Positions 2 to 30,434 of a stretch of 52,569 nucleotides of DNA are shown piece after piece (position 1 is the first letter of the stretch; each line of letters begins with the position of its first letter). The DNA is taken from positions 1 to 52,569 of IMG/VR virus record IMGVR_UViG_3300005573_000120. The stretch is one strand, 5' to 3'. The translations under genes and the position numbers were made by a program. The notes below the pieces were generated by a model. That model searched no databases and had not been told where the DNA came from. It was given only the letters and a program-made list of their open reading frames with translations. Origin of the DNA: a virus. Lineage: Duplodnaviria; Caudoviricetes.

Positions 2-106
2 GATGCAAGAATTATATATGATTACTATTATGATGATGCAGAATATTTTGCTAAACGGGTTGTTGAAGATGTGATTAAGAGCTTAAAGGGAAAGAGGATG
101 GTATAA
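2..106 (+). CDS. 3' end (partial) of acidic ~170-aa paralogue family protein
   Basis: Frame 2 reads DARIIYDYYYDDAEYFAKRVVEDVIKSLKGKRMV*, matching the C-terminus of 24647..25159 (DARIVYDYSYDDAEYEAKQIVKDVI). Confidence 0.8.
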   Translation, partial: DARIIYDYYYDDAEYFAKRVVEDVIKSLKGKRMV

Positions 107-107
107 T
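99..107 (+). promoter_or_regulatory. Extended -10 promoter candidate (TGgTATAAT)
   Basis: Perfect TGnTATAAT upstream of SD AAGGAGGT and ORF 135; no clear -35. Confidence 0.45.
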
Positions 108-134
108 AATTTTTAAAAAATAAGGAGGTAGATT

Positions 135-359
135 ATGGAAAACTCATCTGATTTATCATTTTTTAGTGATGAGGATTTGATTAGGATAGCAAAGGAAATG
201 GGGGTGGATATTTATGGTGATTGTAATAGGTTAGAGCTAGCCCGTAAGGTTTCTGATGATAATGTTGGTAGAATTGTTAAGTTTGCTCATCGTATTTGGA
301 GGGTTAAGAAGGAAGGGGAGAAGTATTATTTGGAGCGTTTGGAAGATGAGAATGTATGA
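135..359 (+). CDS. Hypothetical phage protein
   Basis: Strong SD (taaggaggt), 74 aa. Confidence 0.75.
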   Translation: MENSSDLSFFSDEDLIRIAKEMGVDIYGDCNRLELARKVSDDNVGRIVKFAHRIWRVKKEGEKYYLERLEDENV

Positions 360-470
360 TTTAAAATTGGAAGATAGAGATTTGAATGCATCGGTTAATA
401 TATTAACAGTTGTGGGGATTGGATAATGGTCTGGTCGGGAAAGCAAGAACTTCCAAAAAGGGGGACCCTG
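351..470 (+). repeat. Internally deleted copy of tnpB 3' end / omegaRNA-like region
   Basis: Matches 7480..7660 (gatttaaaattggaagatagagatt...tgaatgcatcggttaatatatta...atggtctggtcgg..aagcaagaac) with two internal deletions. Confidence 0.85.
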
Positions 471-1118
471 GAAGAAGAGTATTATGATGTTAAGTTGGCA
501 GAGTTAGATGATGCAATTTCCGAAATGGTAAAGGAAAAAAATAGAGCGATTGCTTTGATAGAAAGTGGCAAGGTGGATTTAGAGGGGTGTCCAGAGGGAC
601 AAATTCTAATTGAGGGGATTGGGGTTGAAAATTGGGAGGATTTATCTATGGAGGAAAAGATTGCAGAGGTTGCAGTTTTTTATGATGAAAGAGTAAGAGA
701 GTTGGAAACTGACTACGATAAATTGGTGAAAGAGAGGGAGAAGGAGTTAAAAAGGACAAGAATAAAGGAATACAAGGAAGCTCTAATAAATGATGCTGTT
801 GATGTTGTTAAAAAAGTTTTAGATGATTTGGGAATTGGTTATGAGATTAAAAAATCTCAACATAGCGAGAGTGTATATATCTATGTGGGCGATGTTTCAG
901 AAGAGTATATGGAATTTGACAAAAGTTACTATGTAAAATCTGGGGAAGGTGTGATTATAAGAATTTCTACTCATGAAAGAAGTCCTTTGTATGAAGGATT
1001 GCATCCATTAGATTTGAATTATGTGATAGATGATGAATTTGATGGCGACGAATTTGAGGAGAAACTGGTAACTGATTTGAATGAGTTGTTAAGCGAGATT
1101 GAAGAAGAGGAGGAATAA
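426..1118 (+). CDS. Acidic hypothetical protein (coiled coil plus C-terminal SxSxY...IRISTH domain); N-terminus derived from the tnpB remnant
   Basis: ORF track; begins MVWSGKQEL like 7620 (MVWSVKQEL). Confidence 0.7.
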   Translation: MVWSGKQELPKRGTLEEEYYDVKLAELDDAISEMVKEKNRAIALIESGKVDLEGCPEGQILIEGIGVENWEDLSMEEKIAEVAVFYDERVRELETDYDKLVKEREKELKRTRIKEYKEALINDAVDVVKKVLDDLGIGYEIKKSQHSESVYIYVGDVSEEYMEFDKSYYVKSGEGVIIRISTHERSPLYEGLHPLDLNYVIDDEFDGDEFEEKLVTDLNELLSEIEEEEE

Positions 1119-1120
1119 TT

Positions 1121-1807
1121 TTGGGGAATAAGTTTGAACAGGTTGTGGATAAAATTTTTTCCTTGTTTAAAAATGATGATATTGATAAAGTAGCTGAGTA
1201 TATTGAGAGATGGTATGGTAAAGATATAGCAGATTGGTTTAGAGATGCATCTTCTTATAAAAGAGTAGGGTTTGTAGAGAATGTAGTTAAGAGAGAAAAA
1301 CCTTGGAAGGAGAAGATTACTTTGGGAATGAAAAAGAAAAAAGGATTGGATGAATTTGGAAAGAATTATTGGAGGAGGTATTTAGAGGGAACTGGTTTGG
1401 ATGAGAATTTATTGAAGGTGGCTTATAGTGAAATAGAGGCTTTAATAGAAAAAGAGGATGAGTTATCTCCAGTTGAGCTTTATGCAGAGTATAAAAAATT
1501 GGGAGAGAAATATGCTGATAAAGGGGGATTGGACTTGGTTCGTAGATTGAGAGCGGATTTATTGAGAAAAATTTGTTGTAAAAATAATATAGCTTCTATT
1601 TTTGTAAGAAGGACTCATAAGGTTGATAATTTTGCTAATCAAAGGGATTTGAGGAGTTGTTATCATATTATTGGTGATGATTTAGGTATTTTTCATTTTG
1701 AGAATCCGTCTGAGTTTAATAGGGTTAAGAGTTTTTTAGATGAATTTGAGGCTGATTATTCAGTTCCAGATTCTTGGAATAGTGGTAAGAAAGAGATGGT
1801 AAAATAA
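1121..1807 (+). CDS. Hypothetical protein, possible internal head protein
   Basis: TTG start with gaggagg SD; operonic. Confidence 0.7.
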   Translation: MGNKFEQVVDKIFSLFKNDDIDKVAEYIERWYGKDIADWFRDASSYKRVGFVENVVKREKPWKEKITLGMKKKKGLDEFGKNYWRRYLEGTGLDENLLKVAYSEIEALIEKEDELSPVELYAEYKKLGEKYADKGGLDLVRRLRADLLRKICCKNNIASIFVRRTHKVDNFANQRDLRSCYHIIGDDLGIFHFENPSEFNRVKSFLDEFEADYSVPDSWNSGKKEMVK

Positions 1808-1826
1808 ATTTGAAGGAGGTAGGAAA

Positions 1827-2951
1827 ATGTTTCCTGGGATTGATTTTTTAAGAAGATTAGAGAATGATATAGTTGCTAGTGATAATATAAGTTTTGATGA
1901 GTTAGATTTTCCGATTATCAAAGCTGGTGAATTTTATAGGATAGCTTGTGATGAGGTTAAGAATAGAGATTTTTTGGCAGTTTTAAAGAAGAGGAGTGAA
2001 GATGACCCAAGTAGTTATTGGACTTTTTCTGATTTTAAAAGGTTAGCTGATTATATTAGGAATTATTCAGATGCTGATTCTGTTTTGGATTTTATTAAAG
2101 ATGTATTAAATAAGGTGATTGGTGATTTAGAATGGAAATCTCTTGTAAGAATAGCTAAGGGTGTAAAATCTCTTGATGATTTTATAGATGCTTGTAGAGG
2201 TTTGAGGATATTAGGTTCGGATGCTTCAAGTAATGCTGTTAGAAAAATTTTTACTGATTTAGTAAAGAGATATTCTGGAAAGGATTATAGTTTGGATTTA
2301 AATGTGCTTGATATTAGGGATGTTAAGTCCAGTGTAGAAAATGTTATTGTTAATAAGTTAGATAAATTTGCAAAAGTGGAAGATATAAAGAATAGGTTAA
2401 GAGGTAAGAAGATAGAGAGGCAGGCTAAGATAGAAGAAATTATTGGTAAGATAAGTAAAATTCCAGATGATAGTGGATGGGTTAGATATTTAGTTTCAAA
2501 GTATAATGATGGTGGTTTGGATTGGGATAATTTGCAGAGAGAGCTTTTGAATAAAACTTCTGGAAAGGTTAGAGATGAAATTTTTAGTATTATAAAGGCT
2601 TCTGGTTTTAAAAAAAGAAGGGTTCCAAATAATAATATAATTCGTAAGATTGAGGATTATGGAGTAAAGGAAGGTAAGATTAGAGTTAAAGGTGATAAGG
2701 AAGATAAAGATAAGAAGGATAAAGGTAAGGAAAATAAAAAGAGTGATGAGGATGGTTCTCTGATGTCTGATTATGTTACTGAAGGTTATGCTGTGAGAAT
2801 TGAAGGAAATCCTGCTAGTCCTTATTATGGAAAGGTTGGTATTGTAGAATGGGTAAAGGATGATGGTTGGGTAGGAATAAATTTGAGGAATGGAGATTAT
2901 GTGGAAAGGTGGATTGAGGATGTTGTTCCTGTTACAAAAAAATTATATTAA
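1827..2951 (+). CDS. Hypothetical protein with possible C-terminal SH3/KOW-like beta domain
   Basis: SD aaggaggt; C-terminal GYAVRI...YYGKVGIVEWV after a lysine-rich linker. Confidence 0.7.
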   Translation: MFPGIDFLRRLENDIVASDNISFDELDFPIIKAGEFYRIACDEVKNRDFLAVLKKRSEDDPSSYWTFSDFKRLADYIRNYSDADSVLDFIKDVLNKVIGDLEWKSLVRIAKGVKSLDDFIDACRGLRILGSDASSNAVRKIFTDLVKRYSGKDYSLDLNVLDIRDVKSSVENVIVNKLDKFAKVEDIKNRLRGKKIERQAKIEEIIGKISKIPDDSGWVRYLVSKYNDGGLDWDNLQRELLNKTSGKVRDEIFSIIKASGFKKRRVPNNNIIRKIEDYGVKEGKIRVKGDKEDKDKKDKGKENKKSDEDGSLMSDYVTEGYAVRIEGNPASPYYGKVGIVEWVKDDGWVGINLRNGDYVERWIEDVVPVTKKLY

Positions 2952-2954
2952 TTC

Positions 2955-3027
2955 TTTAATGGAGGGACGCCGAGATATAATCCCACCTCCCCTCCTTTCT
3001 GTTTTAATTTCGGCGTCTCTCCTTAAA
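2955..3027 (+). promoter_or_regulatory. Long stem-loop with anti-Shine-Dalgarno-like loop
   Basis: ggagggacgccgag (2961-2974) pairs with ttcggcgtctctcc (3009-3022); loop contains cccacctcccctcctttct. Confidence 0.6.
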
Positions 3028-3053
3028 AATAAGGGATTTTTAAAAGGTGGTGG

Positions 3054-4217
3054 ATGATGCAGTATATAGGTAAAGAATTTCGTTTAGACCTTATTGGAAG
3101 GGATAAGATTTTGTCTTATTTTTCTGGTTTTGATTTATCTGGTTTTATCACTGATTTTAAAGTGTTGCAGTATCGTATGTTAGATAATAGTAAGGGAGTG
3201 GTGACTTATAGTATAAAGTTGAGAGGTTATACTGGTGGTAATGTTGATATTGAGATACCAGTTATGTTTGATATAGAGGTTGGTGAAGTTCAGCGTCCTG
3301 TGATAGGTTATATAAATGGTAATGTTATTTTGTTGAGTGAGGGTGTTTTAAATAGTTTATTAGATAGTTTTAATCTTAAAAGAAAATTTTATCCTGGGTG
3401 GATTTCTTTTAATTATGCTATTAGTGATAAAGATTATAATATTTATAATGATTGGAATAAGTATAGGGTAGCTTCTTTAGAGGATTTAGAGGATAATGAT
3501 TTAATGTCAGCTTTAAATGGTTATTTTTTATGTCTTGGTGCTAGTAAGGATACTTTATTGAATGTTATTAGAGATAGGGCTAGTTATCTTTGTAGGGATG
3601 GGGTTTCTTATGATGATGCAAGTGTGTATATGGTTGGTTCTTATTTAGGTGGGAATGTTGATTTTTTTGATATTAAAAAGGTTGTGAATGATGTTTATAA
3701 TTTTTCTAAAAGGTATGCGCAGGGTGAATTAGAGATACCAGAGTATTATGAGAGGATAGAGTTTCCAGAGATTGCTGATTTATTAGATGTTATTAAGTTA
3801 TATCATGTAATTAGGTTTGCTTATAGAAAATTAAATGGTGAATATACTACTCGGGTTGTTGAACCTCACTATTTATGGTATACCAATAAGGGGAATGTGA
3901 TTTTGATAGGTTGGGATTATTCAAGAGGGGATTGGAGGGCTTTTGATTTGAATCGTATTAGGGATGTGGATGTTATGTATTTAGGGGATTGGATAGAGTT
4001 AGGAAAATTTTTAGCAATGGTTCAGTCTTATGGTAAAGTTCCTGATGATTATAGGGATGTTTTTAAGCCTCGTGGTCCTTATCATGATTTTGTAGTGAAT
4101 GTTAGGGGTAGTTTAAATAATTTGAGGGATAGGACTAAGCCTGTTTTATCTATTATGATAGATAAAATTGGGAAAGTAATTGATGAGAGAATAAAGAAGG
4201 ATTTGTGTGATGGCTGA
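3054..4217 (+). CDS. Protein with C-terminal WYL domain
   Basis: IRFAYRKLNGEYTTRVVEPHYLW...LIGWDYSRGDWRAFDLNRI is the WYL-domain pattern. Confidence 0.8.
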   Translation: MMQYIGKEFRLDLIGRDKILSYFSGFDLSGFITDFKVLQYRMLDNSKGVVTYSIKLRGYTGGNVDIEIPVMFDIEVGEVQRPVIGYINGNVILLSEGVLNSLLDSFNLKRKFYPGWISFNYAISDKDYNIYNDWNKYRVASLEDLEDNDLMSALNGYFLCLGASKDTLLNVIRDRASYLCRDGVSYDDASVYMVGSYLGGNVDFFDIKKVVNDVYNFSKRYAQGELEIPEYYERIEFPEIADLLDVIKLYHVIRFAYRKLNGEYTTRVVEPHYLWYTNKGNVILIGWDYSRGDWRAFDLNRIRDVDVMYLGDWIELGKFLAMVQSYGKVPDDYRDVFKPRGPYHDFVVNVRGSLNNLRDRTKPVLSIMIDKIGKVIDERIKKDLCDG

Positions 4218-5538
4218 TAAAAGAAAAATATTAGTAGTTGATACTGGGTTAGCTTTGGATGTTGTGAGGAAATTAGCACAGGAAGGGAATGAGGTTTATT
4301 ATTTTGAGAATTGGATTAAGGCTCATCCTGAGCAGGAGGACTTATCTTATGGTGAAGGTTTGTTTGAGGAATGGGGTGTTAATAGGGTTGACAATTTTTG
4401 GCATTTGGTTGATGATGTTGATATGGTGTTATTTACGGATATAGGTTGGGGAGATGATATAGATTTTCTTCGTAGGGAGGGTTGTGTTGTTTTTGGTGCT
4501 GGTAAAGAGGGTGAGGAATTGGAGAATGATAGGGTTTTTGCGAAGTCTATTTGTAAGGAGTGTGGGTTAGATGTTCCTGAAACTTATAGTATGAACCCAG
4601 ATGAGGCTATAGATTTTGTAAATAATGAGGATAGGGAGTTTGTTTTGAAGTTTTCAAAGGTGAGAACTGATTTATTATCTACTTATTTGCCAGTTTGTAA
4701 AGAGGATTGTTTATGGTATTTAAATAAAGTGAAAGAGTTAGATTCTAATGTTGAGGTTATTTTAGAGGAGAGGATAGAGGGTGTGGAGTGTGCTATTTCT
4801 GGATTTTTTAATGGTTATGAGTTTGTGGAGCCTTATTTGATAAATTTTGAGCATAAGAAGCTTATGGATGGTGAAGTTGGTCCGAATACTGGTGAGATGG
4901 GCAATTGTGCGATTTATACTTATAATTCTGATTTGCCTTTTGTTAAGTATTTTAATAATTTATCTGGTTATTTAAAGGATATAGGTTATAGGGGTATAAT
5001 AGATATAGATTGTATGTGTAATGAGGATGGTTTTTATGTTTTGGAATTTACTTGTAGATTTGGTTATCCTATGATTATGATTCAGAGCGTTTTGCATAAG
5101 GATAATTTAGGTGATATATTATTTGGGGTAGCAACTGGAGAGATAGATAGATTTGAAGCTTATGATAATTTATGGGTGGTTGGAGTTTGTCTAAATATAG
5201 CTGGTTATCCTTTTGATGATGTTGTTAAGAAGTCTGGGTTTGTAAAGATATTTGGTTTAGAAGAGGCGTTAGAGAATGGTTATAAGATAGGTTTTCAGGC
5301 GTTGTGTAAGAAGGAAGATGGCTATTATTCTGTGCCTGGTCATGGGAGGGTTTTAGTTATAAATGGGACTGGTGATGATATATCGTCTGCAAGAGGTAAT
5401 GCTTATGGAGCTTTAGATTATATAGGTTTTTCAGATATGATGTATAGATTAGACATAGGTTTAAAAGTAGAGAAAAGGTTAGATAACTTAGTAGAATGGG
5501 GAGTGATAGATGATAAAAAAAGCGGAATTAAGTATTGA
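4207..5538 (+). CDS. PurD (phosphoribosylamine-glycine ligase)-like ATP-grasp ligase
   Basis: LENDRVFAK, ILEERIEGVE, EHKKLMDGEVGPNTGEMG, LEFTCRFGYP, GRVL, YRLDIG motifs. Confidence 0.85.
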   Translation: MMADKRKILVVDTGLALDVVRKLAQEGNEVYYFENWIKAHPEQEDLSYGEGLFEEWGVNRVDNFWHLVDDVDMVLFTDIGWGDDIDFLRREGCVVFGAGKEGEELENDRVFAKSICKECGLDVPETYSMNPDEAIDFVNNEDREFVLKFSKVRTDLLSTYLPVCKEDCLWYLNKVKELDSNVEVILEERIEGVECAISGFFNGYEFVEPYLINFEHKKLMDGEVGPNTGEMGNCAIYTYNSDLPFVKYFNNLSGYLKDIGYRGIIDIDCMCNEDGFYVLEFTCRFGYPMIMIQSVLHKDNLGDILFGVATGEIDRFEAYDNLWVVGVCLNIAGYPFDDVVKKSGFVKIFGLEEALENGYKIGFQALCKKEDGYYSVPGHGRVLVINGTGDDISSARGNAYGALDYIGFSDMMYRLDIGLKVEKRLDNLVEWGVIDDKKSGIKY

Positions 5539-5824: not shown

Positions 5825-5843
5825 AAAAGGAGGTTAATGCTAT

Positions 5844-6458: not shown

Positions 6459-6472
6459 ATTAGATTATTTAG
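6425..6472 (+). repeat. 48-bp direct repeat, copy 1 (copy 2 at 9658..9705)
   Basis: agaggatt[t/g]aattagcaccaaattatcaacctgaattagattatttag, 47/48 identical. Confidence 0.9.
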
Positions 6473-6486
6473 GAAAGAGATAAAAT

Positions 6487-8030: not shown

Positions 8031-8043
8031 TTAGTTTTAAAAG

Positions 8044-19107: not shown

Positions 19108-20982
19108 ATGAGGCTACCTTTATCAAGGCACGATTTAAGATGGCTATCCATACAGGTAAGCGACTATCTTAATAAAGCCTTCTCTATCACAGAAGATAAT
19201 AAAAAAATAGACCTCCCTTATCCAGTAAATCCAATTGAATGGGTAGCAAGTGAAAAATTCTTAAATTTATCTGCTATTTATGATATGAGAGGTCAATACT
19301 ATGCTTTAAGGGAGTTTTTTCAATGTTATTGTCCTATTTGTTCAAGTTTTAGCAGTAAGGATGTATTTACAATAGATAAGTCAAAGTTGTTAAAGGATAA
19401 TCTATTAGTTTGGGATAATAATAAGATGGACGAATTTTGTCCTAAGTGTGGATTATTAAAGAGGGATTTTATTAAAGAGGGGTTATTAAAGGAGTATAAT
19501 GTTTTGGTTGGTGCTATAGGTATGAGGGCTGGGAAGACTACTTTAGCTGGTATGATTATGTCTTATGTTGAGGTATTTTTTAATAGGTTGGGTGATATAA
19601 GGAGGGCTTTGGGTTTGGAATCTGTTCCGTATATAGAGATAGGGTGTATAGCTGTTTCTGCTCAGCAGGCTAAGGGGACGATATGGGCTCAGTTTGGTTC
19701 TATTCGTGATAATAGTATATGGTATGAGCGTTTTAGGGAGTATATGAATGATAGTGGTTATGTTAAGGATGGTTTATATGAGGAGTTGGGTTCAAGTGTT
19801 CGTAATGATGTAGTTGGTTATCATATAGAGAGTATGAATAGTAGTAGTGCTAGTTTAGCGGGTAAGACGAGGGGATTATTTATTATAGATGAGTTGAGTA
19901 GGTTTGATACGACGGAGAGTAAGAGGAGTGCGAGTGAGGTATGGAGGGTTGGTTTGCATAGTTTAAAGACGGTTAGGAAGGCGGTTAAGGATATGGGTTT
20001 GCCTGGTTGGGTGGGTAGTTTAGTGGCGATTGGTAGTCCTTTGAGTGTGGATGATTATTTGATGATGAAGTTGAAGGATGAGTCTGGGGATAGTGTTTTG
20101 AAGATGCATTATAGCACTTGGGAGTTTAATCGTTTATATAAGGAGTCTGATTTTGTTCAGGAGTTTGAGGATGATTATATAGCTGCGGTTCGTGATTTTG
20201 GTGCGGAGCCACCAGGGTCTGATGTTCCTTTTTTTGAGAATTGGGATATGATAGTTGAGTTGGTGGAGGATAAGGGTTTAAAGCCTGTGGTTGATTTTGA
20301 TGGTATAGAGCGTATAGGTTATGGTGGGGTGGTTTATATAGGTAAGGTTGTGAAGGATATAAGGTTTGATGATGGGGAGTGGTTTATAGGTTGTGATGCG
20401 GGTAAGAGTAGGGATAGTTTTGGTATAGTAGGTTGTAAGAGGATTTGGGATAAGTCTGGTGGTTTTAGTTTGGTATGTGGTTTTGTGGTTCACATCTTGC
20501 CTGATGCGGTTGCTAGGAGGTATGTTGATTATGAGTGTATTCCTTTGTTATTAGAGGTTATATGTAAGAGGTTAAAAGTATTGAAGATTTCTTTTGATTA
20601 TTGGAATAGTGAGAGTATAGTTCAGCATTTAGAGTTAAAGGGTTTACCTGTAGAACAGTATGCTATGAGTGCTTTGAAGGTGGATGATTTTTTGAGTTTT
20701 AGGGGTGGTTTATTATCTGGTAGGGTTAAGTTATTGCCGAGGTTAAGGTCTGAGGATAGTGATAGTAGGTTGATGGATAGTCAGACGAGGTTGTATTGGG
20801 AGATGAAGCGTATGAGGAGGAGTAGGGATTTGGCAAAGGTGGATCATAGTCCTCGTAGCACTTCTGATTTATTTGAGTGTTTGGTTAATTGTTGGCGTAT
20901 GGCGAGTTCAAATATTGATATAGGTAGGAATTTTGAGAGTTTTAATAATTTTGGTGATATAATAAGAATTAGGAAATGGTAG
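19108..20982 (+). CDS. terL: Terminase large subunit
   Basis: Walker A GMRAGKT, Walker B FIIDE, coupling motif IGSP, RNaseH-fold nuclease GCDAGKSRDS / FDYWNS / SDL; Zn-binding insertion near N-terminus. Confidence 0.9.
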   Translation: MRLPLSRHDLRWLSIQVSDYLNKAFSITEDNKKIDLPYPVNPIEWVASEKFLNLSAIYDMRGQYYALREFFQCYCPICSSFSSKDVFTIDKSKLLKDNLLVWDNNKMDEFCPKCGLLKRDFIKEGLLKEYNVLVGAIGMRAGKTTLAGMIMSYVEVFFNRLGDIRRALGLESVPYIEIGCIAVSAQQAKGTIWAQFGSIRDNSIWYERFREYMNDSGYVKDGLYEELGSSVRNDVVGYHIESMNSSSASLAGKTRGLFIIDELSRFDTTESKRSASEVWRVGLHSLKTVRKAVKDMGLPGWVGSLVAIGSPLSVDDYLMMKLKDESGDSVLKMHYSTWEFNRLYKESDFVQEFEDDYIAAVRDFGAEPPGSDVPFFENWDMIVELVEDKGLKPVVDFDGIERIGYGGVVYIGKVVKDIRFDDGEWFIGCDAGKSRDSFGIVGCKRIWDKSGGFSLVCGFVVHILPDAVARRYVDYECIPLLLEVICKRLKVLKISFDYWNSESIVQHLELKGLPVEQYAMSALKVDDFLSFRGGLLSGRVKLLPRLRSEDSDSRLMDSQTRLYWEMKRMRRSRDLAKVDHSPRSTSDLFECLVNCWRMASSNIDIGRNFESFNNFGDIIRIRKW

Positions 20983-21034
20983 GGTTTATGTTATATAAAA
21001 AATTAAAAAAATAAGGAGGTAGAGGTAAGGGAAA

Positions 21035-21559
21035 ATGGAAATTCTTGTTGGGGTTAAGACTGGTGATTCTAGTATAGAAGATTTTATTTTAAAGGTAGAG
21101 TATTATGTGGATGAGGAAATTTATGATAGTGCTCTTGATTATCTTAGGAGATATATTGCACATAATTTTAGTGTTCGTTTTAGAGAATTAGATATAGATA
21201 TACCAGATGAGCTTGATGAATTTGCGGAATGGATTAGTGATATTTATAGTAGTATTGGTTCTGATAATTTTGATGATTATATTGATTCGTATATTAGAAA
21301 TATTGTAAGTAAAAGACCAGAATATGCTAATTTGACAGGTAAATGGGATGTTTATGATGTTGAAGAACGAGATATAGATGAACAAATAAAGCGTGTTATT
21401 TACACGGCTACTGGGGAGAGTAAAACTCTAGAAGACTTTATTAGAAGCTTAGAAGATCTTTTTAAATTTGGTAGAATAAGAATTATACATTATGATTATG
21501 AAAATGCAGATTTTTTTGCTGAATTGATTGTTAGAGATCTAATTAGGGATTTAAAGTGA
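21035..21559 (+). CDS. Acidic ~170-aa paralogue family protein
   Basis: ALDYL...LDIDIPDELDEFAEW...GKWD...TLEDF shared family motifs. Confidence 0.8.
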   Translation: MEILVGVKTGDSSIEDFILKVEYYVDEEIYDSALDYLRRYIAHNFSVRFRELDIDIPDELDEFAEWISDIYSSIGSDNFDDYIDSYIRNIVSKRPEYANLTGKWDVYDVEERDIDEQIKRVIYTATGESKTLEDFIRSLEDLFKFGRIRIIHYDYENADFFAELIVRDLIRDLK

Positions 21560-21596: not shown

Positions 21597-22211
21597 GTGG
21601 CTAAAGAAGATTTTGTTCCTTATATTTTGTTAGATTTAGCTGGGAGATATAGTGATTTATTTCCATCTCTTAAAGATTGTTATGAGATAGAGGATTGTAA
21701 AGAGATAGCTAAAAATTTAGATATTAAAGAATATTATCGTCATGGCTATCAGTTTAATTTAGATGATCATTCTGTTTTATTTTTTATGAGTGAAAAGGAT
21801 GCAGAGGAGTGTGCTTATTTAAGAGTTGAAGAGATGTTAGATGAGCCTGAACTTTTTAATAGAGATTGGTTAAAAGATTATTTGTATATGAGTGACTTAG
21901 ATATTAGACTTTTTTTGGATGATTTAGAGGAAATATATAGTGAGCAGGGTGATATGTCTGAAGAGGAGATTGAAAAAAGATTGAATGAAGCAAGAAAAGT
22001 TTTGGAATATGATCCATTAGATTTTTTAATTGGTGAACTAGGATATGATGAGAAATCAGCTTTTGAAATGTTATATATAAATTATTCAGAAGCGGCTAAA
22101 AATGCTGTTAATATTGATGGTTGGGCTCATTTTTTAGGGAGATATGATGGAAATGGCTGGGAGGTATCTATTCCTGAAGGTGGCTCAGTATACTATGTAT
22201 TAGGGGATTAA
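21597..22211 (+). CDS. Highly acidic protein, weakly ArdA-like C-terminus
   Basis: GTG start with SD; YINYSEAAKNAVNIDGWAHFLGRYDG; D/E rich. Confidence 0.6.
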   Translation: MAKEDFVPYILLDLAGRYSDLFPSLKDCYEIEDCKEIAKNLDIKEYYRHGYQFNLDDHSVLFFMSEKDAEECAYLRVEEMLDEPELFNRDWLKDYLYMSDLDIRLFLDDLEEIYSEQGDMSEEEIEKRLNEARKVLEYDPLDFLIGELGYDEKSAFEMLYINYSEAAKNAVNIDGWAHFLGRYDGNGWEVSIPEGGSVYYVLGD

Positions 22212-22296
22212 AGAAGATGGTATGGTCTATATTATATAAAAAAATGGTAGGGTTTATGTTATATAAAGAGGTTTAAAAAATAAGGGGTAAGGGAAA

Positions 22297-22821
22297 ATGG
22301 AAATTCTTGTTGGGGTTGACCCTGAGCTTGAATTTGCTGTAGAGCGAGGTTTAGATAGTTTTGTTTTAGAGGTGGAGTGTCAAGAGAAAGAGGAGGTTTA
22401 TGATTTAGCTCTTGATTATCTTAAAGAGTATCTTATAGATGGTTTTAGAGATAAAGGGTTAGATATAAGTATTATAACCGATGATTTTGATGATTTTATG
22501 GATTGGGTTGCTGGTAATTCTGATAATTTTGATGAGTATATTAATTCTTATATTATAGGTGTTGTAAGGTCTTTTCCACACGAAGCCACTTTGACGGGCT
22601 GGTGGTATGTTTATAAAGGGCGTATAGATGAAAAAATGTGTGATACTATTGATAAAATTGTTAAAAAGAGTATAAATTTAGAAGATTTTATTGATAGATT
22701 AAGGGATGCTCCTGAAGTTAATGATGCATGGATTGTAGATGATTCTTCTCCTCCAGGTATAGACCAGCTTGTTAAAAGTGTTGTTAAAGATGCGATTAGG
22801 GCAATGAAAAAAACAAGATGA
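22297..22821 (+). CDS. Acidic ~170-aa paralogue family protein
   Basis: ALDYLKE...KGLDISIITDDFDDFMDWV. Confidence 0.8.
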   Translation: MEILVGVDPELEFAVERGLDSFVLEVECQEKEEVYDLALDYLKEYLIDGFRDKGLDISIITDDFDDFMDWVAGNSDNFDEYINSYIIGVVRSFPHEATLTGWWYVYKGRIDEKMCDTIDKIVKKSINLEDFIDRLRDAPEVNDAWIVDDSSPPGIDQLVKSVVKDAIRAMKKTR

Positions 22822-22838: not shown

Positions 22839-24062
22839 ATGATGATGAATAAGATAGCTCGTTCAATAGAAGAGATTAAGAATGAGATATTGAGCTTGAC
22901 TGATGATTTTATGCAGTTGACTAATTATTTTGAGGAGTGTAAGAGGCTAAAGAGTCGTTTAGATGATTTGATTTGGAATATAAGTAGTATGAGGACTGGT
23001 TTATTGTATCGTTTAGATAATTTGCGTAGGGAGTATGCTGATTTAGAGGTGCATGCGAGTATAAGATTAGCTCAGAGTCCTGTGGAGAATGTAGAGATAA
23101 CGGAGTTAGGTAATCAGATACAGGATTTATTAGGGAAGTGGGATGAATTGGATAGGGAGATACAGGATTATGAGAATAGTTTATTTGATTTGGAGTTGGA
23201 GCAACAGGAGATAAAGAAGGATTTGGAGAATATAGGTAATATTTTATCTGATGTGGGGGGTGATTCTATGGGTTATATTCCAGTTTATAGTTTTGTTAAG
23301 GTATTTAAGGATTATGACAAGGATAGGAAGGTAGTTGGTAGTTTTTCAAAGGAGTATCAGAAGAGTTTTTTGACTATGGATCAGATAAAGGCTTTATCTG
23401 ATGATGATTTAACTAAGTTAGTAGAGTCTTTATCTATTGAGTTGAGTAATATAATTCAGAAGAGAAGGATGTTAGAAAAGGAAGCGGAGGGTTTAAAGGG
23501 TCAAGAATCTGAATTGGAGAAGCAGTTAGCTAACATTTATTGGGCTACGAAGAAGGAGTTATTTGAGACTGAGAATTTGATAGCAGAAATAAAGGTTAAG
23601 TTGAATGAGAGGACTATAAGTTATAAGCAATTGGTTGCTTATGCTTATACGATAGCTACTGAGGAGTTAAAGAAGAGGTTAGAGGAGTATGAGAAGCAGT
23701 TAAGAGAGGCAGCTGGTTTGAGGGAGGATGTTCGGGTGAAGATTACTCCAAAGAAGACTTCGGGGGTGGTTTCTCCTTATTTTTATGCAGAGAAGCGTAT
23801 TATAGAATTGAAGGAGAGTGGTTGTCCTCGTAAGGAGGCTTGGCGGAGGGTGGTTATTTGGTTTAGTGAGAGTATGGATTTGTATGATTTGCAGGAGCTT
23901 TTTGAGAGTATATATGGTCCAATATCTCCTGAGGGTAAGAGGAAGGCTCAGGTATGGGAGAAGGTTAAAGGCTTTTTTAAGAATTTGGTAAATACGGCTA
24001 AGGGCTTTTTGGATACTTTGGTGGGTATAAATAGGCAGTTAAAGTATTTAGTGGAGAGTTGA
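22839..24062 (+). CDS. Coiled-coil multidomain protein, putative internal head protein
   Basis: Heptad-rich; between TerL and portal; RLAQ and RKAQ motifs. Confidence 0.65.
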   Translation: MMMNKIARSIEEIKNEILSLTDDFMQLTNYFEECKRLKSRLDDLIWNISSMRTGLLYRLDNLRREYADLEVHASIRLAQSPVENVEITELGNQIQDLLGKWDELDREIQDYENSLFDLELEQQEIKKDLENIGNILSDVGGDSMGYIPVYSFVKVFKDYDKDRKVVGSFSKEYQKSFLTMDQIKALSDDDLTKLVESLSIELSNIIQKRRMLEKEAEGLKGQESELEKQLANIYWATKKELFETENLIAEIKVKLNERTISYKQLVAYAYTIATEELKKRLEEYEKQLREAAGLREDVRVKITPKKTSGVVSPYFYAEKRIIELKESGCPRKEAWRRVVIWFSESMDLYDLQELFESIYGPISPEGKRKAQVWEKVKGFFKNLVNTAKGFLDTLVGINRQLKYLVES

Positions 24063-24099: not shown

Positions 24100-24609
24100 A
24101 TGGGATTTTTTGCTCATATTGAGATTATTTCTGAATCTCACTTTGGTCCAAATAAATTTAATTTAGCAATAAGGTGTAGAGAGGGGGATGCAATTACTGA
24201 ACATGCTCTTGAATATCTTAAAGATTTTATTACAAATGAATTTAGAAGTATAGGATTAGACATAGGTATTATACCAGAAGATCTTTATGATTTTGAGGAT
24301 TGGGTTATGCATAATTCTGATAGTTTTGTTAGCTATATTACTTCTTTTGCTGAAACTTTTGCAAGAGAACTTCCAACGGATATTATTTTAAATGGTTGGT
24401 GGGATATTTATGGAGGGGAGATAGATAAAGAATCGGAGAATATTATTGAAGGGATTATTGAAGAGAGTATGACTTTAGAAGAACTTGTTGATGGGTTAAA
24501 AGATGCTTTTGGATATAATAATGTAGAATGTTTATATAATCCTAGTTATGAAAATACAGATTATTATGCTGAATTGATTGTTAGAGATCTAATTAGGGAT
24601 TTAAAGTGA
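24100..24609 (+). CDS. Acidic ~170-aa paralogue family protein
   Basis: ALEYLKD...GLDIGIIPEDLYDFEDWV; same C-terminus as 21035 (AELIVRDLIRDLK). Confidence 0.8.
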   Translation: MGFFAHIEIISESHFGPNKFNLAIRCREGDAITEHALEYLKDFITNEFRSIGLDIGIIPEDLYDFEDWVMHNSDSFVSYITSFAETFARELPTDIILNGWWDIYGGEIDKESENIIEGIIEESMTLEELVDGLKDAFGYNNVECLYNPSYENTDYYAELIVRDLIRDLK

Positions 24610-24646: not shown

Positions 24647-25159
24647 ATGGGAACTTGTTTTATTAGAGTTGATCCTGTATTTGATTTAGATAGTTTTGTT
24701 TTAGAGGTGGGTTATGAAGAAGGAGATGTGATTATAGAAGATGCTCTTAAATATCTTAAGGAACTTATTACAGATAGTTTTGAAAAGAAGGGATTAGATA
24801 CAAGTATTATACCAGAAGATCTTGGTGATTTTGAGGAATGGGTTACATCTGTTTCAGATAGTCTTGATAAATATCTTACTTATTATATTGATTCTGCTGT
24901 AAGTGATAATCCATCTGAGGCTATTTTGTTAGGTTGGTGGGATATTTATGAAGAGGAGATATATAAAGAAATGGAGAGTGTTATTGATAGGATTGTTGAA
25001 AGGAGTAGAACTTTAGATGATCTTGTTAGTGGATTAAGAGATACCCCTGAATTTGCTGATGCAAGAATTGTATATGATTATAGTTATGATGATGCAGAAT
25101 ATGAAGCTAAGCAAATTGTTAAAGATGTGATAGGATATTGGAAGGAAAGAATGAAATAA
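24647..25159 (+). CDS. Acidic ~170-aa paralogue family protein
   Basis: ALKYLKE...GLDTSIIPEDLGDFEEWV. Confidence 0.8.
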   Translation: MGTCFIRVDPVFDLDSFVLEVGYEEGDVIIEDALKYLKELITDSFEKKGLDTSIIPEDLGDFEEWVTSVSDSLDKYLTYYIDSAVSDNPSEAILLGWWDIYEEEIYKEMESVIDRIVERSRTLDDLVSGLRDTPEFADARIVYDYSYDDAEYEAKQIVKDVIGYWKERMK

Positions 25160-25167: not shown

Positions 25168-25548
25168 ATGAAGATTAAGATTAAGTATAATTCTATTAAA
25201 CCTGTGGATAATTTTGGTTTAGAGTTTGGGTGTCAAGATAACAGGAATATTCGTGCTTGTGCTCTTCTTAGCCTTAAAAATTATATTGTAGATAGCTTTA
25301 AGGATAAGGCAATTGCTATTCCAGATAATTTTAATGATTTTGAAGTATGGGTTAATAATATTAACAAAGTTATTGAAAGGAGTAAAGATTTATATGAATT
25401 TATTGAATGGATGGGGGATGTTTATGGAGTTGATAGTGCAAAAATTATAGATAATCCTTCTTCTCCGAATGTAGACCAGTTTGCTAAAAAGGTTGTCAAA
25501 AAAGTGAGGCATAAAGGTTTAAAGAATAAGGAGATAAGGAAAAGATGA
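25168..25548 (+). CDS. Internally deleted member of the acidic paralogue family
   Basis: ALLSLKNYI...IPDNFNDFEVWV joined directly to the C-terminal part; start taken at ATG 25168 (ORF track 25138). Confidence 0.6.
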   Translation: MKIKIKYNSIKPVDNFGLEFGCQDNRNIRACALLSLKNYIVDSFKDKAIAIPDNFNDFEVWVNNINKVIERSKDLYEFIEWMGDVYGVDSAKIIDNPSSPNVDQFAKKVVKKVRHKGLKNKEIRKR

Positions 25549-27344
25549 AGCGTAAAGGTTTAAAATTGAAGGGTTCTTCAAGGAGTAAGGGTTCTTCTCT
25601 TGAAGATTTTGATTCTTCTATTTTGAATTTAAGGTCTTCAAGGAGTTTTATAGCTGAGGAGGTATCTAATTTTTATAGGGATATGTATGGTTTAGATGAA
25701 GAAGGTAAGGGTTCTGGTATGAAAAAGGAGGCACAGTTTTTTGGTGGGGTAGGTCCTGTTGGTAGCGGGGCTCCAGTTACGATAACTGTTCCTCAGCCTT
25801 ATATTCCAGAGTTAGCTACTCCTGATAGGTTATTTTTTCCGACTAAGCCTAAGGAGGCTATGAAGTATTGGCGTTATTTTTATGCTTTGGATCCTGTTTG
25901 TGGGAATGTATTGGATATGTATGGTGAGGTGACAAGTTCTGATATAACTTTATCTGGTTTTGAGATAGCTGGGGATGATTTGAGTGCTGAGATAAGGGAT
26001 ACTTGCTATGAGGCGTTAAAGGATACGAATGCAGTAGGTCAATTTAAATGGATGGTGATAGGGTATTTGGTGGATGGTGAGGTTATTCCTCATTTAGTTT
26101 GGGATAATGATTTGCATAGATGGGTTTATTTAGGTTTTCAGGATCCGATGAATGTGAATGTGGTGGATGTTCCTTTTGTTCGTGGTCTGCCTTATTTAGA
26201 GTTAGAGATTAGTGATTCTATTCGTAATATATTTAGGAATCCTGACCCAATTTATGAAAGGTTTAGGAAGCAAGTTCCTAATGAGTTTTTGGATTTGATT
26301 TTGCAGGGTAGGAATATACCCTTGAAGACGGATGAGAATGTGACATTTATTCCTAGAAGGCTGACGCCTTATGATATTAGGGGTATATCTATTTTTGCTC
26401 GTATTTGGCGTGTTTTGATTTATGAGGATGCAATTATGAATGCATCCATTCAGACGGCGAGGAGGCATGCAGCACCAGTAAAGGTGGTTAAATTAGGTGA
26501 TCCGTCTAGGGGTTGGATTCCAGGTCCAGAGCAGGAGGATAAGATAAAGAGATTGCTTGCAATAGCTGAGACTGATCCTCATGCGTGGTTGGTGACTCAT
26601 TTTGGTGTTTCTTTTGAGGCTTGGGGGACGACAGATAGGGTGATGAGTATATCTCGTGAATGGGATACGATAGAGAGGATAAAATTGATAGCTTTGGGTG
26701 TAAGTAGAGCTTTCTTGCACGGAGAAGTCACATATTCGTCGGCTGAGAAGGGTTTGCAGATATTTTTGAGTAGATTAAAGGGGTTGAGGACTTTTTTTGA
26801 GCAGGTTTGGTGGTATCCAAGGTTTTTTGGGATAATGTCTCAGAAGAATGAATGGGTTGCTCCTACGAGGGCAGAGCTTTCGCATAATGTAAGGGTTAGG
26901 AGGAGTAAGAAGGAATTATTAGAGGATGGTCGTTATATTATTCCTCGTATAGTTTGGGAGGAGAATTTAGAGCCTCAGGATAGATCGGAGTTGATTCGGA
27001 TTTATACTGATTTAGTTGAGAGGCTTGGTATAAAGATAAGTCGTGGGACTGTTTTAGCTAATTTAGGGTTGGATTTTGAAGAGGAGGAGAAGAATTGGAG
27101 GGAGGAGCAGAAGGTGATAGAGGATTTGGATAAGGAGTATGGTAAGAAAGAGACTGTTCCAGGGCAATCTCCTATGGGAGTTCCTATGGGAGTTCCTATG
27201 GATTTGGGTATTCCAGAGGTAAGTCCTGCTGGTGTTGGAGTTCCAATGGGTGGGGAGGTTCCTGCTGAAAGTCCTGAAACAGGTATAGGTGAAGAAATGG
27301 GTGAGGTAAGCGAAGAAAGTTTGGAAGGTATTGGAAATAAGTAA
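25545..27344 (+). CDS. Portal protein
   Basis: Size and position between TerL and protease; RYFYALDP, RGISIF, LGVSRAFL-type portal features; acidic Pro/Gly tail with PMGV repeats. Confidence 0.8.
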   Translation: MKRKGLKLKGSSRSKGSSLEDFDSSILNLRSSRSFIAEEVSNFYRDMYGLDEEGKGSGMKKEAQFFGGVGPVGSGAPVTITVPQPYIPELATPDRLFFPTKPKEAMKYWRYFYALDPVCGNVLDMYGEVTSSDITLSGFEIAGDDLSAEIRDTCYEALKDTNAVGQFKWMVIGYLVDGEVIPHLVWDNDLHRWVYLGFQDPMNVNVVDVPFVRGLPYLELEISDSIRNIFRNPDPIYERFRKQVPNEFLDLILQGRNIPLKTDENVTFIPRRLTPYDIRGISIFARIWRVLIYEDAIMNASIQTARRHAAPVKVVKLGDPSRGWIPGPEQEDKIKRLLAIAETDPHAWLVTHFGVSFEAWGTTDRVMSISREWDTIERIKLIALGVSRAFLHGEVTYSSAEKGLQIFLSRLKGLRTFFEQVWWYPRFFGIMSQKNEWVAPTRAELSHNVRVRRSKKELLEDGRYIIPRIVWEENLEPQDRSELIRIYTDLVERLGIKISRGTVLANLGLDFEEEEKNWREEQKVIEDLDKEYGKKETVPGQSPMGVPMGVPMDLGIPEVSPAGVGVPMGGEVPAESPETGIGEEMGEVSEESLEGIGNK

Positions 27345-27369: not shown

Positions 27370-28596
27370 ATGAAAAGAAATTTTAAAGTAGCAAGGTTAA
27401 TAGAGGATGTGAGGGATTTGTCTTCTATTGCTTCTACTGATGTTATGGGTAGGCTTGATATATCTAAGGCTATAGAGTTGGTAGCCGATAGGTATAGTAT
27501 ATCTAAAAATCCTGATGATTATTGTTATTTAGTGGTGGTGGCTTTATGTGCTGATAAGCCTAATGATAATGGGGATGCCTTTCCTTTGGCGGAGTTAGAG
27601 AGGTTTGAGCCTCGTTATGGTTGTAAGGTTTATCAGACTTTTGTATTGAAGCCTCATTTTATAGAGCATAAGCAGGATGGTGATGTTTATGGATTTGTAT
27701 TGGATGCTCATTTAGAGAAGCCAAAGGATGATAATGCTTATGTGGAGTTGGTATTGGCGGTGGATACGAAGAAGGATCCTGTTTATGGTGGTTTAGTTAA
27801 GGCGGGTAAGGTGAATGCCTTTTCAATGGGTTGTTCTGTGGATTATACGGTTTGTAATGTATGTGGTCATAAGGCTTATGTTGAGGCTGAATTTTGTGAG
27901 CATATAAAGAGTGGTAAGATGAAGACCTTTAAGGTAGCTGGTTCTAATGAGGAGAAGTTGGCTTTTGAATGGTTATATGGTATATGTTTTGATGAGATTT
28001 CTGCAGTTTCTGATCCAGCGGAGGAAAAGGCATTGTTAGAGGAAAAATTAGCAAGTAAGGTAGAGAATATAAAAGTTAGATTAGGGGTATTGAAACAGAA
28101 GTATAGGGAAGATACAGGTCGTAAGGAGTGGTGTTTGGTATCAAAGGATGGTGATAAGGTTTTGAAGTGGTTTGGTCCTGAAAAACCTTCTGAGGAGGAG
28201 GTGGCTAAAGAGGAGAGAAGGGTGCAGTATTTTAAGCATAAGGGTGGTAAGAGGGTATTATCTCAATCAAGTCAAGACAAGGAGAAGGGATGGTTAATAA
28301 ATTTGTCTAAAGATATATCGGAAGGGAAGGTTTCCGATGAGACTAAGGCGCAAGAGTGGTTTCGTGAGAGATATAAGAGGGAGCCTGATCCTGGTGAGAT
28401 GGAGAATATGAGGTCTTTGTTTAGCCGTAAAAGGATTAGGCAGAGATGGTATAAATTATTGAAAAAAGGCAATAATTTAGTAGAGATAGGGTGTAGGGAG
28501 ATAGAAGATGATACAGATAGTATTATAACAGGATGTAGAGATATAGAGGATAAGGCAGATGATATTGTGATAGGAGTAAAAAATTTAGTAGAATAG
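27370..28596 (+). CDS. Prohead (capsid maturation) protease with C-terminal extension
   Basis: NDNGDAF, HFIEH, FSMG, CNVCG..CEH, EISAV; follows portal. Confidence 0.75.
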   Translation: MKRNFKVARLIEDVRDLSSIASTDVMGRLDISKAIELVADRYSISKNPDDYCYLVVVALCADKPNDNGDAFPLAELERFEPRYGCKVYQTFVLKPHFIEHKQDGDVYGFVLDAHLEKPKDDNAYVELVLAVDTKKDPVYGGLVKAGKVNAFSMGCSVDYTVCNVCGHKAYVEAEFCEHIKSGKMKTFKVAGSNEEKLAFEWLYGICFDEISAVSDPAEEKALLEEKLASKVENIKVRLGVLKQKYREDTGRKEWCLVSKDGDKVLKWFGPEKPSEEEVAKEERRVQYFKHKGGKRVLSQSSQDKEKGWLINLSKDISEGKVSDETKAQEWFRERYKREPDPGEMENMRSLFSRKRIRQRWYKLLKKGNNLVEIGCREIEDDTDSIITGCRDIEDKADDIVIGVKNLVE

Positions 28597-28625
28597 TGAT
28601 TTTTTTAAGGTTTTTGTTTAAATTA

Positions 28626-28673
28626 TGTTATGATATATTGCAACAGGGACTAAGTAATTGAAGATCTTTGAAA
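28626..28673 (+). promoter_or_regulatory. Extended -10 (TGtTATGAT) followed by boxA-like gatctttgaaa
   Basis: Intergenic; boxA-like word recurs at 34063 as gctctttgaaa. Confidence 0.45.
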
Positions 28674-28675
28674 TT

Positions 28676-28770
28676 TATTATTAGTAGGTAGAGGAGATAC
28701 CGAATTTACACTTGTGGAGACTATAAATTGGTCAATGAAGCAAGAACTCTCAAAAAAGGGAGATTCCAAA
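28676..28770 (+). ncRNA. Stand-alone copy of omegaRNA-like scaffold
   Basis: tattattagtaggtagaggag.taccgaat.tac.cttgtggaga...ggtc..tgaagcaagaactctcaaa..gggaga.tcc matches 7568..7662 with no tnpB ORF attached. Confidence 0.6.
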
Positions 28771-28794
28771 AGAAAGAGGAAGGAATAAGAAAAA

Positions 28795-29331
28795 ATGAGA
28801 AATCCTGCTAAAATTAAGGTTAGTCCTAAGCTTGGTGATCCTTATGGTATTTTTAGTTTTATAGTGGAATGTGATGCGGTGGGAAGGGAGCTTTATGAGG
28901 GTGCTTTTGTATATCTTCAGGATTATATTAAAGGTAGATTTGAGGATGAGGGATTAGATACAAGTGTTATACCAGAAGATATTGATGATTTTGATTTATG
29001 GGTTAGAAGTATTTGTGGCACTGAGACGGTTGGTGCATTTATTGTTACTTATGAGGATTCTGCTTTAGGTGAATTTCCAGAGTTTTATTATGTTTCTCAT
29101 ACATGGTATTCTGCGTATTTGGGTAGGAATTTAGATAAAAAAACGGAGAAAATTATTGAGGAGATTCTTGATAAGTCTCTTACTTTAGAGGATGTTATTA
29201 AAGGATTAGAACATGTTTACGGATATGGTAGTGCAAAAATTATATATGATTTTACTTATAAAAATGCGGATTATTTTGCCGAAGATATGTTTAAACATAT
29301 AGTTAGATATTTAGAATATAATAAAAAATGA
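28795..29331 (+). CDS. Acidic ~170-aa paralogue family protein
   Basis: AFVYLQDYI...GLDTSVIPEDIDDFDLWV. Confidence 0.8.
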   Translation: MRNPAKIKVSPKLGDPYGIFSFIVECDAVGRELYEGAFVYLQDYIKGRFEDEGLDTSVIPEDIDDFDLWVRSICGTETVGAFIVTYEDSALGEFPEFYYVSHTWYSAYLGRNLDKKTEKIIEEILDKSLTLEDVIKGLEHVYGYGSAKIIYDFTYKNADYFAEDMFKHIVRYLEYNKK

Positions 29332-29346
29332 AGAGATAAGGGAAAA

Positions 29347-29880
29347 ATGAGAGACAGCGTTTCAATTATAATTATTCCTTCATCTGAACTTGGTTTAGAT
29401 GAATTTGAATTATTAACTGAAATAATGGGGTCGGATAAGGTTTTTGAAGAAGCTTATGAAGAAGCTTATGAAGTTCTGAAGGATTATATTGAAGATAATC
29501 TTATTGAAAGAGGATTAGATACGACTATTGTGCCAGATGATCTAAATGATTTTAAGGTATGGATTCAAAGTATCTCTGATTGGGTTGATGATTATATTGA
29601 GTATTACGCTGGTTTTGCTGTGTTTGAAGCTGAAAAAAATTTAATGCCAATAGGCTATAAGATTGTAGAAGGGCAAGTAGATAGAAAAACAGAGGAGGCT
29701 ATTGAAGAGATTTTTCGGAAGAATGTATATTTTGAAGAAGTTCTTGCAGGGTTAAAAGAGTTTTTTGGGCTTAACATTACAATAGATAAATATGATTATT
29801 GTTATAACGAATCATATGTTACTGCTGTCTTGATTCTTGAAGATGTGATTAGATATTTAGAGGATCGTGAAAAAAAATAA
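29347..29880 (+). CDS. Acidic ~170-aa paralogue family protein
   Basis: LIERGLDTTIVPDDLNDFKVW. Confidence 0.8.
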   Translation: MRDSVSIIIIPSSELGLDEFELLTEIMGSDKVFEEAYEEAYEVLKDYIEDNLIERGLDTTIVPDDLNDFKVWIQSISDWVDDYIEYYAGFAVFEAEKNLMPIGYKIVEGQVDRKTEEAIEEIFRKNVYFEEVLAGLKEFFGLNITIDKYDYCYNESYVTAVLILEDVIRYLEDREKK

Positions 29881-29894
29881 GGAGGTAATGAAGG

Positions 29895-30434
29895 ATGAGA
29901 TTCTTTACTACAATTACAATTATTCCTTTTTGGCATGAATTTAACTTAAGAGAATTTGAATTATTATTTGAGGTATCGGGGTCAGATAGGCTTTTTGAAG
30001 AAGCTTATAAAGATCTTCAGGATTTTATTAAAAGTAGTCTTATTGAAAGAGGATTAGATACGACTATTGTGCCAGATGATCTAAATGAATTTAAGGTATG
30101 GGTTGAGGGCATTTCTGATTGGATCGTTGATTATATTGAGTATTATACTGATTATGCTGTATTTGATACCCAAAAAGATTTTATGCCATTAGGCCTTGAG
30201 ATTTCAAAAGGGCAAGTAGATAAAAAAACAAAGGAAGCTATTAAAGAGATTTTTCGGAAGAATGTATATTTGGAAGAAGTTGTTGCAGGATTAAAAGAGT
30301 ATTTTGGACCTAATTCTACTATAAAAAAAGATCGCTATGATTATAATAGGATAGAAGCATGGCGAAGTGCTGATGAGATTGTTAAAGATGTGATTAACCT
30401 TTTTTATATAACAGAGTATAGAAAAAAAGAATAA
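29895..30434 (+). CDS. Acidic ~170-aa paralogue family protein (recent duplicate of 29347)
   Basis: LIERGLDTTIVPDDLNEFKVW; long near-identical nucleotide blocks shared with 29347. Confidence 0.8.
   Translation: MRFFTTITIIPFWHEFNLREFELLFEVSGSDRLFEEAYKDLQDFIKSSLIERGLDTTIVPDDLNEFKVWVEGISDWIVDYIEYYTDYAVFDTQKDFMPLGLEISKGQVDKKTKEAIKEIFRKNVYLEEVVAGLKEYFGPNSTIKKDRYDYNRIEAWRSADEIVKDVINLFYITEYRKKE

Follow-up and report, generated by a model that had tools for sequence, protein, structure and literature searches.

Phage T4 makes small accessory proteins (the internal proteins IPI*, IPII and IPIII as well as Alt) that are loaded into the prohead via a capsid-targeting sequence and injected. One of them, IPI*, blocks a restriction enzyme, and the internal-protein loci are polymorphic among relatives. 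Giant phages possess families of paralogous head or ejection proteins whose number varies greatly between related phages and which were proposed to be packaged and ejected (PMC5694885). Here, we describe a family of mostly very acidic proteins that is encoded in several copies between the head genes of a virus of the class Caudoviricetes (Duplodnaviria; IMG/VR record IMGVR_UViG_3300005573_000120). The window, i.e., the whole stretch of DNA that was analyzed, comprises 52,569 bp; it is the entire record of this virus and contains 56 called genes, all of them on the + strand. The multigene family is real, rare and lineage-specific. It is newly recognised in so far as it has no counterpart in Pfam, PHROGs, PADLOC and PDB, and the claim of novelty is limited to these databases. 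Its copies occupy two junctions of the head module in which the closest relatives hold single giant open reading frames (ORFs) with variable enzyme domains.

Members of the family and their distribution

A family hidden Markov model (HMM) was built from the eight intact ORFs and run against every stop-to-stop frame in the window with 30 or more amino acids (aa), 680 in total. It recovers exactly these eight ORFs (E values from 4e-74 to 5e-43) together with a fragment at 2-103, and the next frame follows with an E value of 0.15. This confirms the at least nine paralogues that had been noticed in a first-pass annotation made from the sequence alone. The eight ORFs can be aligned along their entire length and share between 19 and 61% of their amino acids. 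Copy 1 (2..103, + strand; E 4.3e-8) is a C-terminal fragment cut by the contig end. All 34 of its 34 residues are identical to the C-terminus of P0025, a 171-aa database protein on a 37.8-kb contig, and therefore this ninth copy is whole in the real genome.

The other eight copies, likewise on the + strand and assigned by the HMM, lie between the genes for TerL, portal, protease, a scaffold-like protein and the major capsid protein (MCP), and each of them has its own AAGGAGG ribosome-binding leader of the head-gene type. Directly downstream of TerL stands 21035..21559 (174 aa, isoelectric point (pI) 4.31). It is followed by 22297..22821 (174 aa, pI 4.25), which has the 5′ leader and the identical first codons in common with it, by 24100..24609 (169 aa, pI 4.14), which shares 92% identity with 21035 over the 3′ end and the spacer behind it, and by 24647..25159 (170 aa, pI 4.05). 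The fifth copy (25168..25548) is matched by the HMM in two domains (positions 2-74 and 118-175). It lacks positions of about 75-117 and with them helix 3, strand 3 and the GWWD motif, which bears out the earlier description of this copy as deleted. Its stop codon overlaps the portal start codon, and an alternative TTG start is found at 25138. Three further copies are located between protease and scaffold, namely 28795..29331 (178 aa), 29347..29880 (177 aa) and 29895..30434 (179 aa), the last two being the youngest pair in the alignment. This pair had been called near-identical; in fact its proteins are 61% identical in the MAFFT alignment (58% with BLASTP), with a nucleotide identity of 85% over 300 nucleotides (nt).

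Some of the other initial statements hold only in part. All copies had been placed among the head genes, which is true for eight out of nine, since copy 1 is 19 kb away from the head module. Among the neighbours TerL (19108), portal (25545), protease (27370) and MCP (33014) are confirmed by PHROG, whereas the “scaffold” at 30447 has no family match. The label of a very acidic protein of about 170 aa fits seven copies (169-179 aa, pI 4.05-4.74, net charge -11 to -26) but not the basic copy 25168 with its pI of 9.45. Aspartate and glutamate indeed make up a quarter of the residues in 24647 (fraction 0.25).

The amino acid sequences of the copies diverge far faster than those of the core genes. 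A codon model with F3x4 frequencies gives a ratio of non-synonymous to synonymous divergence (dN/dS, omega) of 0.69 for seven copies, and the youngest pair shows a dN of 0.26 and a dS of 0.25. For six core genes compared with the closest relatives (L008 and L036, see below) omega is 0.009-0.041 with saturated synonymous sites. The contrast stands because the core genes are saturated at 51-70% amino acid identity while the paralogues at 61% reach a dS of only about 0.25. The methyltransferase paralogues, used as a control for dN/dS, were saturated as well. Ratios obtained by the NG86 method, which exceeded 1 for all 28 pairs, were rejected as unreliable given the cytosine-depleted codon usage and saturation.

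An exhaustive profile search among 1.84 billion cluster representatives revealed only 18 at E≤0.001, and for ten of these the E value was 1e-30 or lower. In the phylogenetic tree the window copies together with P0007, P0025, P0008, P0009, P0010 and P0015 are split from a distant group with a bootstrap value of 98. Four viruses with the family are known here and contain nine, three, one and one copies. Besides the virus under study, three viruses encode distant members: L003 possesses one directly after a T4-type MCP, L002 a tandem row of three flanked by a DNA methyltransferase and replication genes, and L005 one between tail-tube genes and a pyruvoyl arginine decarboxylase. This means that the genomic context is not conserved, with placement in the head module in one (L003) of these three other viruses, and that tandem expansion happened more than once.

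A search of IMG/VR with a portal alignment yielded 79 loci (1.43 Mb with 10-kb flanks); the portal as a single query had found nothing there. None of these 79 portal-related loci contains the family at E≤0.01, apart from one marginal partial match with an E value of 0.005. The closest relatives, covered by five whole records of 24.7-104 kb, lack it too, and it is absent from the 41-kb head-module stretch of Virus Rctr197k; as a positive control the same query detected a member in G001. The family alignment and P0007 as queries retrieved nothing from IMG/VR, and another family alignment nothing from genome contigs. The family is thus accessory, and it is mobile within and between hot-spring phages. 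The original notion of an expanding, diversifying accessory family is upheld by these copy numbers and absences, by the omega value and by the relics of duplication described below.

Head-module junctions and multiplication of the copies

The closest relatives, L008 and L036, have portals that are 57-60% and MCPs that are 69-70% identical to those of the virus described here. In both of them TerL is followed by a giant ORF of 1226 or 1224 aa (6187-9867 in L008, 6124-9798 in L036), the portal, a protease-scaffold fusion of 1298 or 1287 aa (12219-16115 and 11786-15649, respectively), an Ig-like protein and the MCP. The giant TerL-portal ORF has a variable N-terminal two-thirds (with GNAT and DUF5661 domains in L008 and DUF5661 in L036), and the protease-scaffold fusion of L036 contains an AAA ATPase domain in its middle. 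These enzyme domains may represent capsid-delivered cargo that is fused to assembly proteins.

In the window the C-terminal third of the giant ORF corresponds to a coiled-coil protein of 407 aa (22839..24062, + strand; 29% identity, E 1e-46, L008 residues 826-1222). Where the relatives have the variable part of this ORF, the TerL-portal interval contains five family genes and an unrelated acidic ORF of 204 aa (21597..22211, + strand; pI 4.18) that was not found in relatives. The second junction lies between the prohead protease (27370..28596, + strand; phrog_18299) and the scaffold-like protein (30447..32291, + strand). Residues 6-362 of the former map to positions 3-756 of the L008 fusion and residues 3-612 of the latter to positions 826-1297, and therefore the block of three copies sits at one linker point. 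On this mapping the block 28597-30446, which consists of a 198-nt spacer and three family genes, is a single-point insertion that splits the protease-scaffold fusion. A long protease ORF (744-1455 aa) is present in 31 of 65 distinct relatives, and a homologue of the scaffold C-terminal part is encoded within the same ORF as the protease in five of the six loci where it is detectable.

How the copies spread can be read from relics of neighbouring genes. The last TerL codons (RKW and stop) and the following leader (20971..21002, + strand) recur at 22212-22243 and 22239-22270 with 84-88% identity (repeat D20). These two relics (22212..22270, + strand) precede copy 22297 and were carried along when the 21035 cassette was duplicated. 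Repeat D11 extends from the 3′ end of 21035 over the spacer to the start of the next gene and is 92% identical to the stretch after 24100. A further relic (28638..28707, + strand) lies in the 198-nt gap upstream of copy 28795 and consists of the 3′ end of the MCP gene (ATGTK and stop) plus 50 nt of its downstream region; its partner is found at 34038-34107 (repeat D19, 89% identity). The duplicated segments therefore included ends of neighbouring core genes, and the copies have multiplied by segmental duplication and illegitimate recombination, thereby dragging 3′ ends of TerL and MCP with them. The MCP relic implies that a family gene once stood directly downstream of the MCP, in agreement with its position in L003 today. 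An Rfam search gave no match, and D19 shows no special RNA fold (z 0.2-0.3).

Two DNA runs contain contigs with joints in this region. Among them, one between 21008 and 24627 occurs in both runs, and one between 22212 and 22830 is found in the second run (X2) at a depth of 4.8. The latter joint would remove exactly the 22297 cassette and can be considered as a possible, weakly supported presence/absence variant. Such joints hint at variation in copy number; they come from fragmented contigs placed at 80% likeness, and several of them reflect cross-mapping of paralogues. A scan for sigma-70 promoters revealed no enrichment (56 found, 62 expected), and the GTTATATAAA motif shows no late-gene pattern.

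Charge, fold and possible functions

The acidity of the family in part reflects the composition of a cytosine-poor genome, in which 8 of 47 non-family ORFs have a pI below 4.5. It is nevertheless kept across the family, 17 of 18 members being net negative, and the family alignment contains 11 columns with at least 70% aspartate or glutamate and no basic column. The last 12 residues behave differently, with a net charge of zero or above in 20 of 21 members and a positive one in 15. The most conserved features are motifs of the aromatic core (GWWDxY, W65 and Y80). AlphaFold models were computed for 21035 from 8 sequences (predicted local distance difference test, pLDDT, 85.7) and for 24647 from 18 sequences (pLDDT 92.3; 89.9 or more in all five models). 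They agree in the topology b1 b2 a1 a2 a3 b3 a4 a5 b4 a6 with the N-terminus as an integral core β-strand. The predicted fold is compact α/β, its body being strongly acidic and its C-terminal tail neutral to basic.

Structure prediction, as envisaged from the start, thus gave two confident models, and no known structural or enzymatic family was matched in Pfam, PHROG, PADLOC or PDB. None of the eight copies hit a Pfam family at E≤1 (pfam12699 included), PHROG returned only noise, PADLOC had no match below an E value of 0.003, and the sequence profile search of PDB gave histidine kinases at best (E 0.23). Foldseek found nothing at E≤0.001 in PDB with both models or in BFVD with the first one. 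In the wide and exhaustive structure searches with VIA the best Z scores of 5.4 and 5.6 stayed under the tool's own noise bar of about 8, and ESM Atlas gave no usable feature match and structural template modelling scores of at most 0.33. The longer members P0014 and P0017 have C-terminal extensions, for which Pfam gave no match. Two candidates were rejected, namely a free-standing homing endonuclease of the Seg/Mob type, as Pfam and PHROG reveal no nuclease match and the proteins are acidic, and an HicB-like antitoxin N-domain, for which hhalign gave a probability of 0.56% against the window's own HicB.

The copies are likely to act on the host or to travel in the capsid. We tentatively favour the possibility, to which we assign somewhat less than an even chance, that they are synthesized late, packed into the head and transferred to the host. 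They would be produced together with the head proteins and enter the prohead as free-standing internal proteins, where they would correspond, in unfused form, to the variable segments that are part of the protease-scaffold and TerL-portal proteins in relatives. On ejection of the DNA they would exit from the capsid with it and attach to host proteins via their acidic surface, and their diversification would track the variation of host targets, for instance of nucleases used in defence. We favour head loading because the copies occupy slots in which relatives fuse variable enzyme domains to head-assembly proteins, because copies and head genes have their leaders in common and because the copies bear a distinct C-terminal tail. 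It is favoured also because giant phages have variable paralogue families of head or ejection proteins (PMC5694885). The proposal of the first-pass annotation that the proteins are packaged and injected is favoured indirectly, since the insertion sites coincide with the variable enzyme-bearing segments of relatives. Several points weigh against head loading. No targeting propeptide is apparent, the N-terminus being a β-strand in the models, and no protease cleavage motif was identified. The members of L002 and L005 as well as window copy 1 are encoded outside the head module, the slots could simply be recombination-tolerant linkers, and it is not evident why acidic cargo should be favoured beside packed DNA. 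As for the omega estimates, the core-gene trees are saturated, and gene conversion between paralogues (repeat D11) can distort dS. Improbable in our opinion is a more specific variant in which the copies are free-standing, acidic, nucleic-acid-like decoys that dock in the prohead with their basic C-terminal tail and are injected ahead of the DNA against different host DNA-binding defences, and which replaced the fused GNAT and AAA ATPase domains of relatives.

Ocr and ArdA are DNA-mimic anti-restriction proteins with very low pI and a large net negative charge. The copies could act in the same way as counter-defence proteins in the cytoplasm without being packaged, so that their position among the head genes would be an accident of cassette tolerance. 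Their size, pI and net charge fit the crude profile of a mimic, copy number and context are variable, omega is high, six methyltransferases are encoded at 8490-16949, and the family cluster of L002 follows a methyltransferase. However, no match to ArdA, Ocr or any other family appeared in Pfam at E≤1, nor one in PADLOC below 0.003, and no solved mimic is a fold neighbour of either model with Foldseek at E≤0.001 or among the VIA matches listed. Moreover, it is the aromatic core motifs that are conserved most and not arrays of surface carboxylates, and acidity is common in this genome. Specific support for a DNA mimic thus does not go beyond charge, and we consider it possible but rather doubtful. 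Many scaffold and core proteins are acidic too, and in phage T4 the core components gp67 and gp68 are degraded or expelled at maturation. That the copies are small, scaffold-like prohead assembly or core components of this kind, which have no host target and replace the lost middle and N-terminal parts of the giant head ORFs, would explain why they are found exactly where these parts are missing and have leaders in common with head genes. It is unlikely, as the family is completely missing from relatives whose portals are 57-60% and whose MCPs are 69-70% identical, an omega of about 0.7 and one degenerate copy are unusual for such parts, and the members of L002 and L005 are located outside head modules.

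We give similarly little credence to selfish or near-neutral cassettes that are spread by recombination into tolerant junctions with little benefit to the phage. The gene-end relics that travel with copies, the decayed copy, the high omega and the contig joints would all agree with such elements, but in eight of the nine copies the frame is intact and the ribosome-binding site strong, fold, motifs and acidity are kept across distant viruses, and Pfam and PHROG searches of the copies reveal no nuclease (GIY-YIG, HNH and the like) or transposase motif. Very improbable, finally, is a derivation from the head-to-tail adaptor of the T7 gp11 type, which would make the copies portal-binding proteins. 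The resemblance is an unconfirmed lead from modelled structures, podovirus portal-tail adaptors being the one theme that recurs in the structure searches. Seven podovirus portal-tail or adaptor chains align in full length with one or both models (Z 3.7-5.6, 81-97 residues, root-mean-square deviation 3.5-4.8 Å), five copies adjoin the portal gene, and the L003 member after the MCP is found at the usual position of adaptors. Yet all these Z scores are below the noise bar already mentioned, the probability obtained for T7 gp11 with hhalign is 0.06%, and a single-copy dodecameric adaptor is difficult to reconcile with nine copies in a myovirus. Complex prediction with portal residues 60-545 and copy 24647 resulted in scores of 0.00 and 0.00 against a mark of 0.32 and weighs neither way.

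Should the copies be packaged effectors, then a head-assembly operon would have turned into a store of injected proteins, and a large group of uncultured jumbo phages would have cargo slots in the variable middles of their protease-scaffold fusions. Whatever their function, the locus clearly records how an accessory gene can multiply in nature inside an essential operon, in which one insertion splits the protease-scaffold fusion without destroying it. The confidently predicted α/β fold without a significant structural neighbour is a candidate for structure determination and for defence-inhibition screens.

The virus and comparison with known systems

The virus is a hot-spring myovirus, probably of the jumbo type. 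The region is present in two DNA runs from two studies, both labelled hot springs metagenome, one of which may be the source, and in no listed RNA run. The genome is probably of jumbo size, because the records of the closest IMG/VR relatives comprise 103 kb at an estimated completeness of 47%. Portal and MCP are nearest to those of Virus Rctr197k in the phage collection (44-46% identity), followed by jumbo phages such as Bacillus phage G and the PaBG group. In the record of Rctr197k (L001, KX853510.1) TerL, a 6.5-kb TerL-portal ORF and many head genes are annotated only as “misc_feature, similar to ...”, which points to in-frame stops or to the use of another genetic code there. Inteins are common in the portals of this phage group, and the homologues P0033, P0034, P0038, P0041, P0099, P0106, P0107, P0121 and P0123 contain intein or LAGLIDADG Pfam domains. 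The strands of the window are extremely asymmetric. On the coding strand cytosine amounts to 8.7% and guanine to 25.2%, with a GC skew of about 0.5 throughout. The cytosine bias is common to L008, L002 and L003 (relatives or other carriers of the family; 10.8-12.4% cytosine). As the samples are from hot springs, a heat-driven loss of cytosine on the strand exposed as single-stranded DNA is a possible cause.

According to PHROG and Pfam the structural genes comprise TerL (19108-20982), portal (25545-27344), prohead protease (27370-28596) and MCP (33014-34057) and further an Ig-like protein (32309), the tape measure protein (44179) and baseplate J (50833). Upstream of them the accessory region contains a WYL-domain protein, TnpB (IS605 OrfB) and an HicB-like gene (3054-8445); the TnpB protein as query against genome contigs gave no match and hence no clue to the host. 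Six consecutive DNA methyltransferase genes follow (8490-16949; four N6_N4_Mtase, one N6_Mtase/Eco57I-like and one of the D12 class), a row that means very heavy investment in DNA modification. Two GARS-like ATP-grasp paralogues (4207-5538 and 17015-18361) are 32% identical, and a homologue of the gene at 17015 is located in the head region of L003, an unrelated family-carrying virus (2571-3926; 25% identity, E 9e-28). In the tail region there is a second small paralogue pair (42046-42354 and 42376-42696, 31% identical over 80 aa). Downstream of gene 34175 a stretch of 458 nt (35078-35535) has no called ORF and no Rfam match.

Among the known systems Ocr and ArdA are similar to the window copies in size range, low pI and negative charge, without a match in the sequence and structure searches described, the copies being modelled as compact α/β proteins. 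With the T7 gp11 family they have weak full-length structural alignments and portal-adjacent genes in common, but the window family is multicopy and found in a myovirus. Compared with the T4 internal proteins, the copies have no apparent N-terminal targeting peptide, no identified cleavage site and no homology. SPN3US families A and B as well as phiKZ gp93/94/95/162/163 (pfam12699) are, like the window family, diverged paralogues of large myoviruses (PMC5694885). These head paralogues show no sequence relationship to the window copies (no Pfam match at E≤1, pfam12699 included). The members of the window family are smaller and much more acidic, and they are interleaved with TerL, portal, protease and scaffold.

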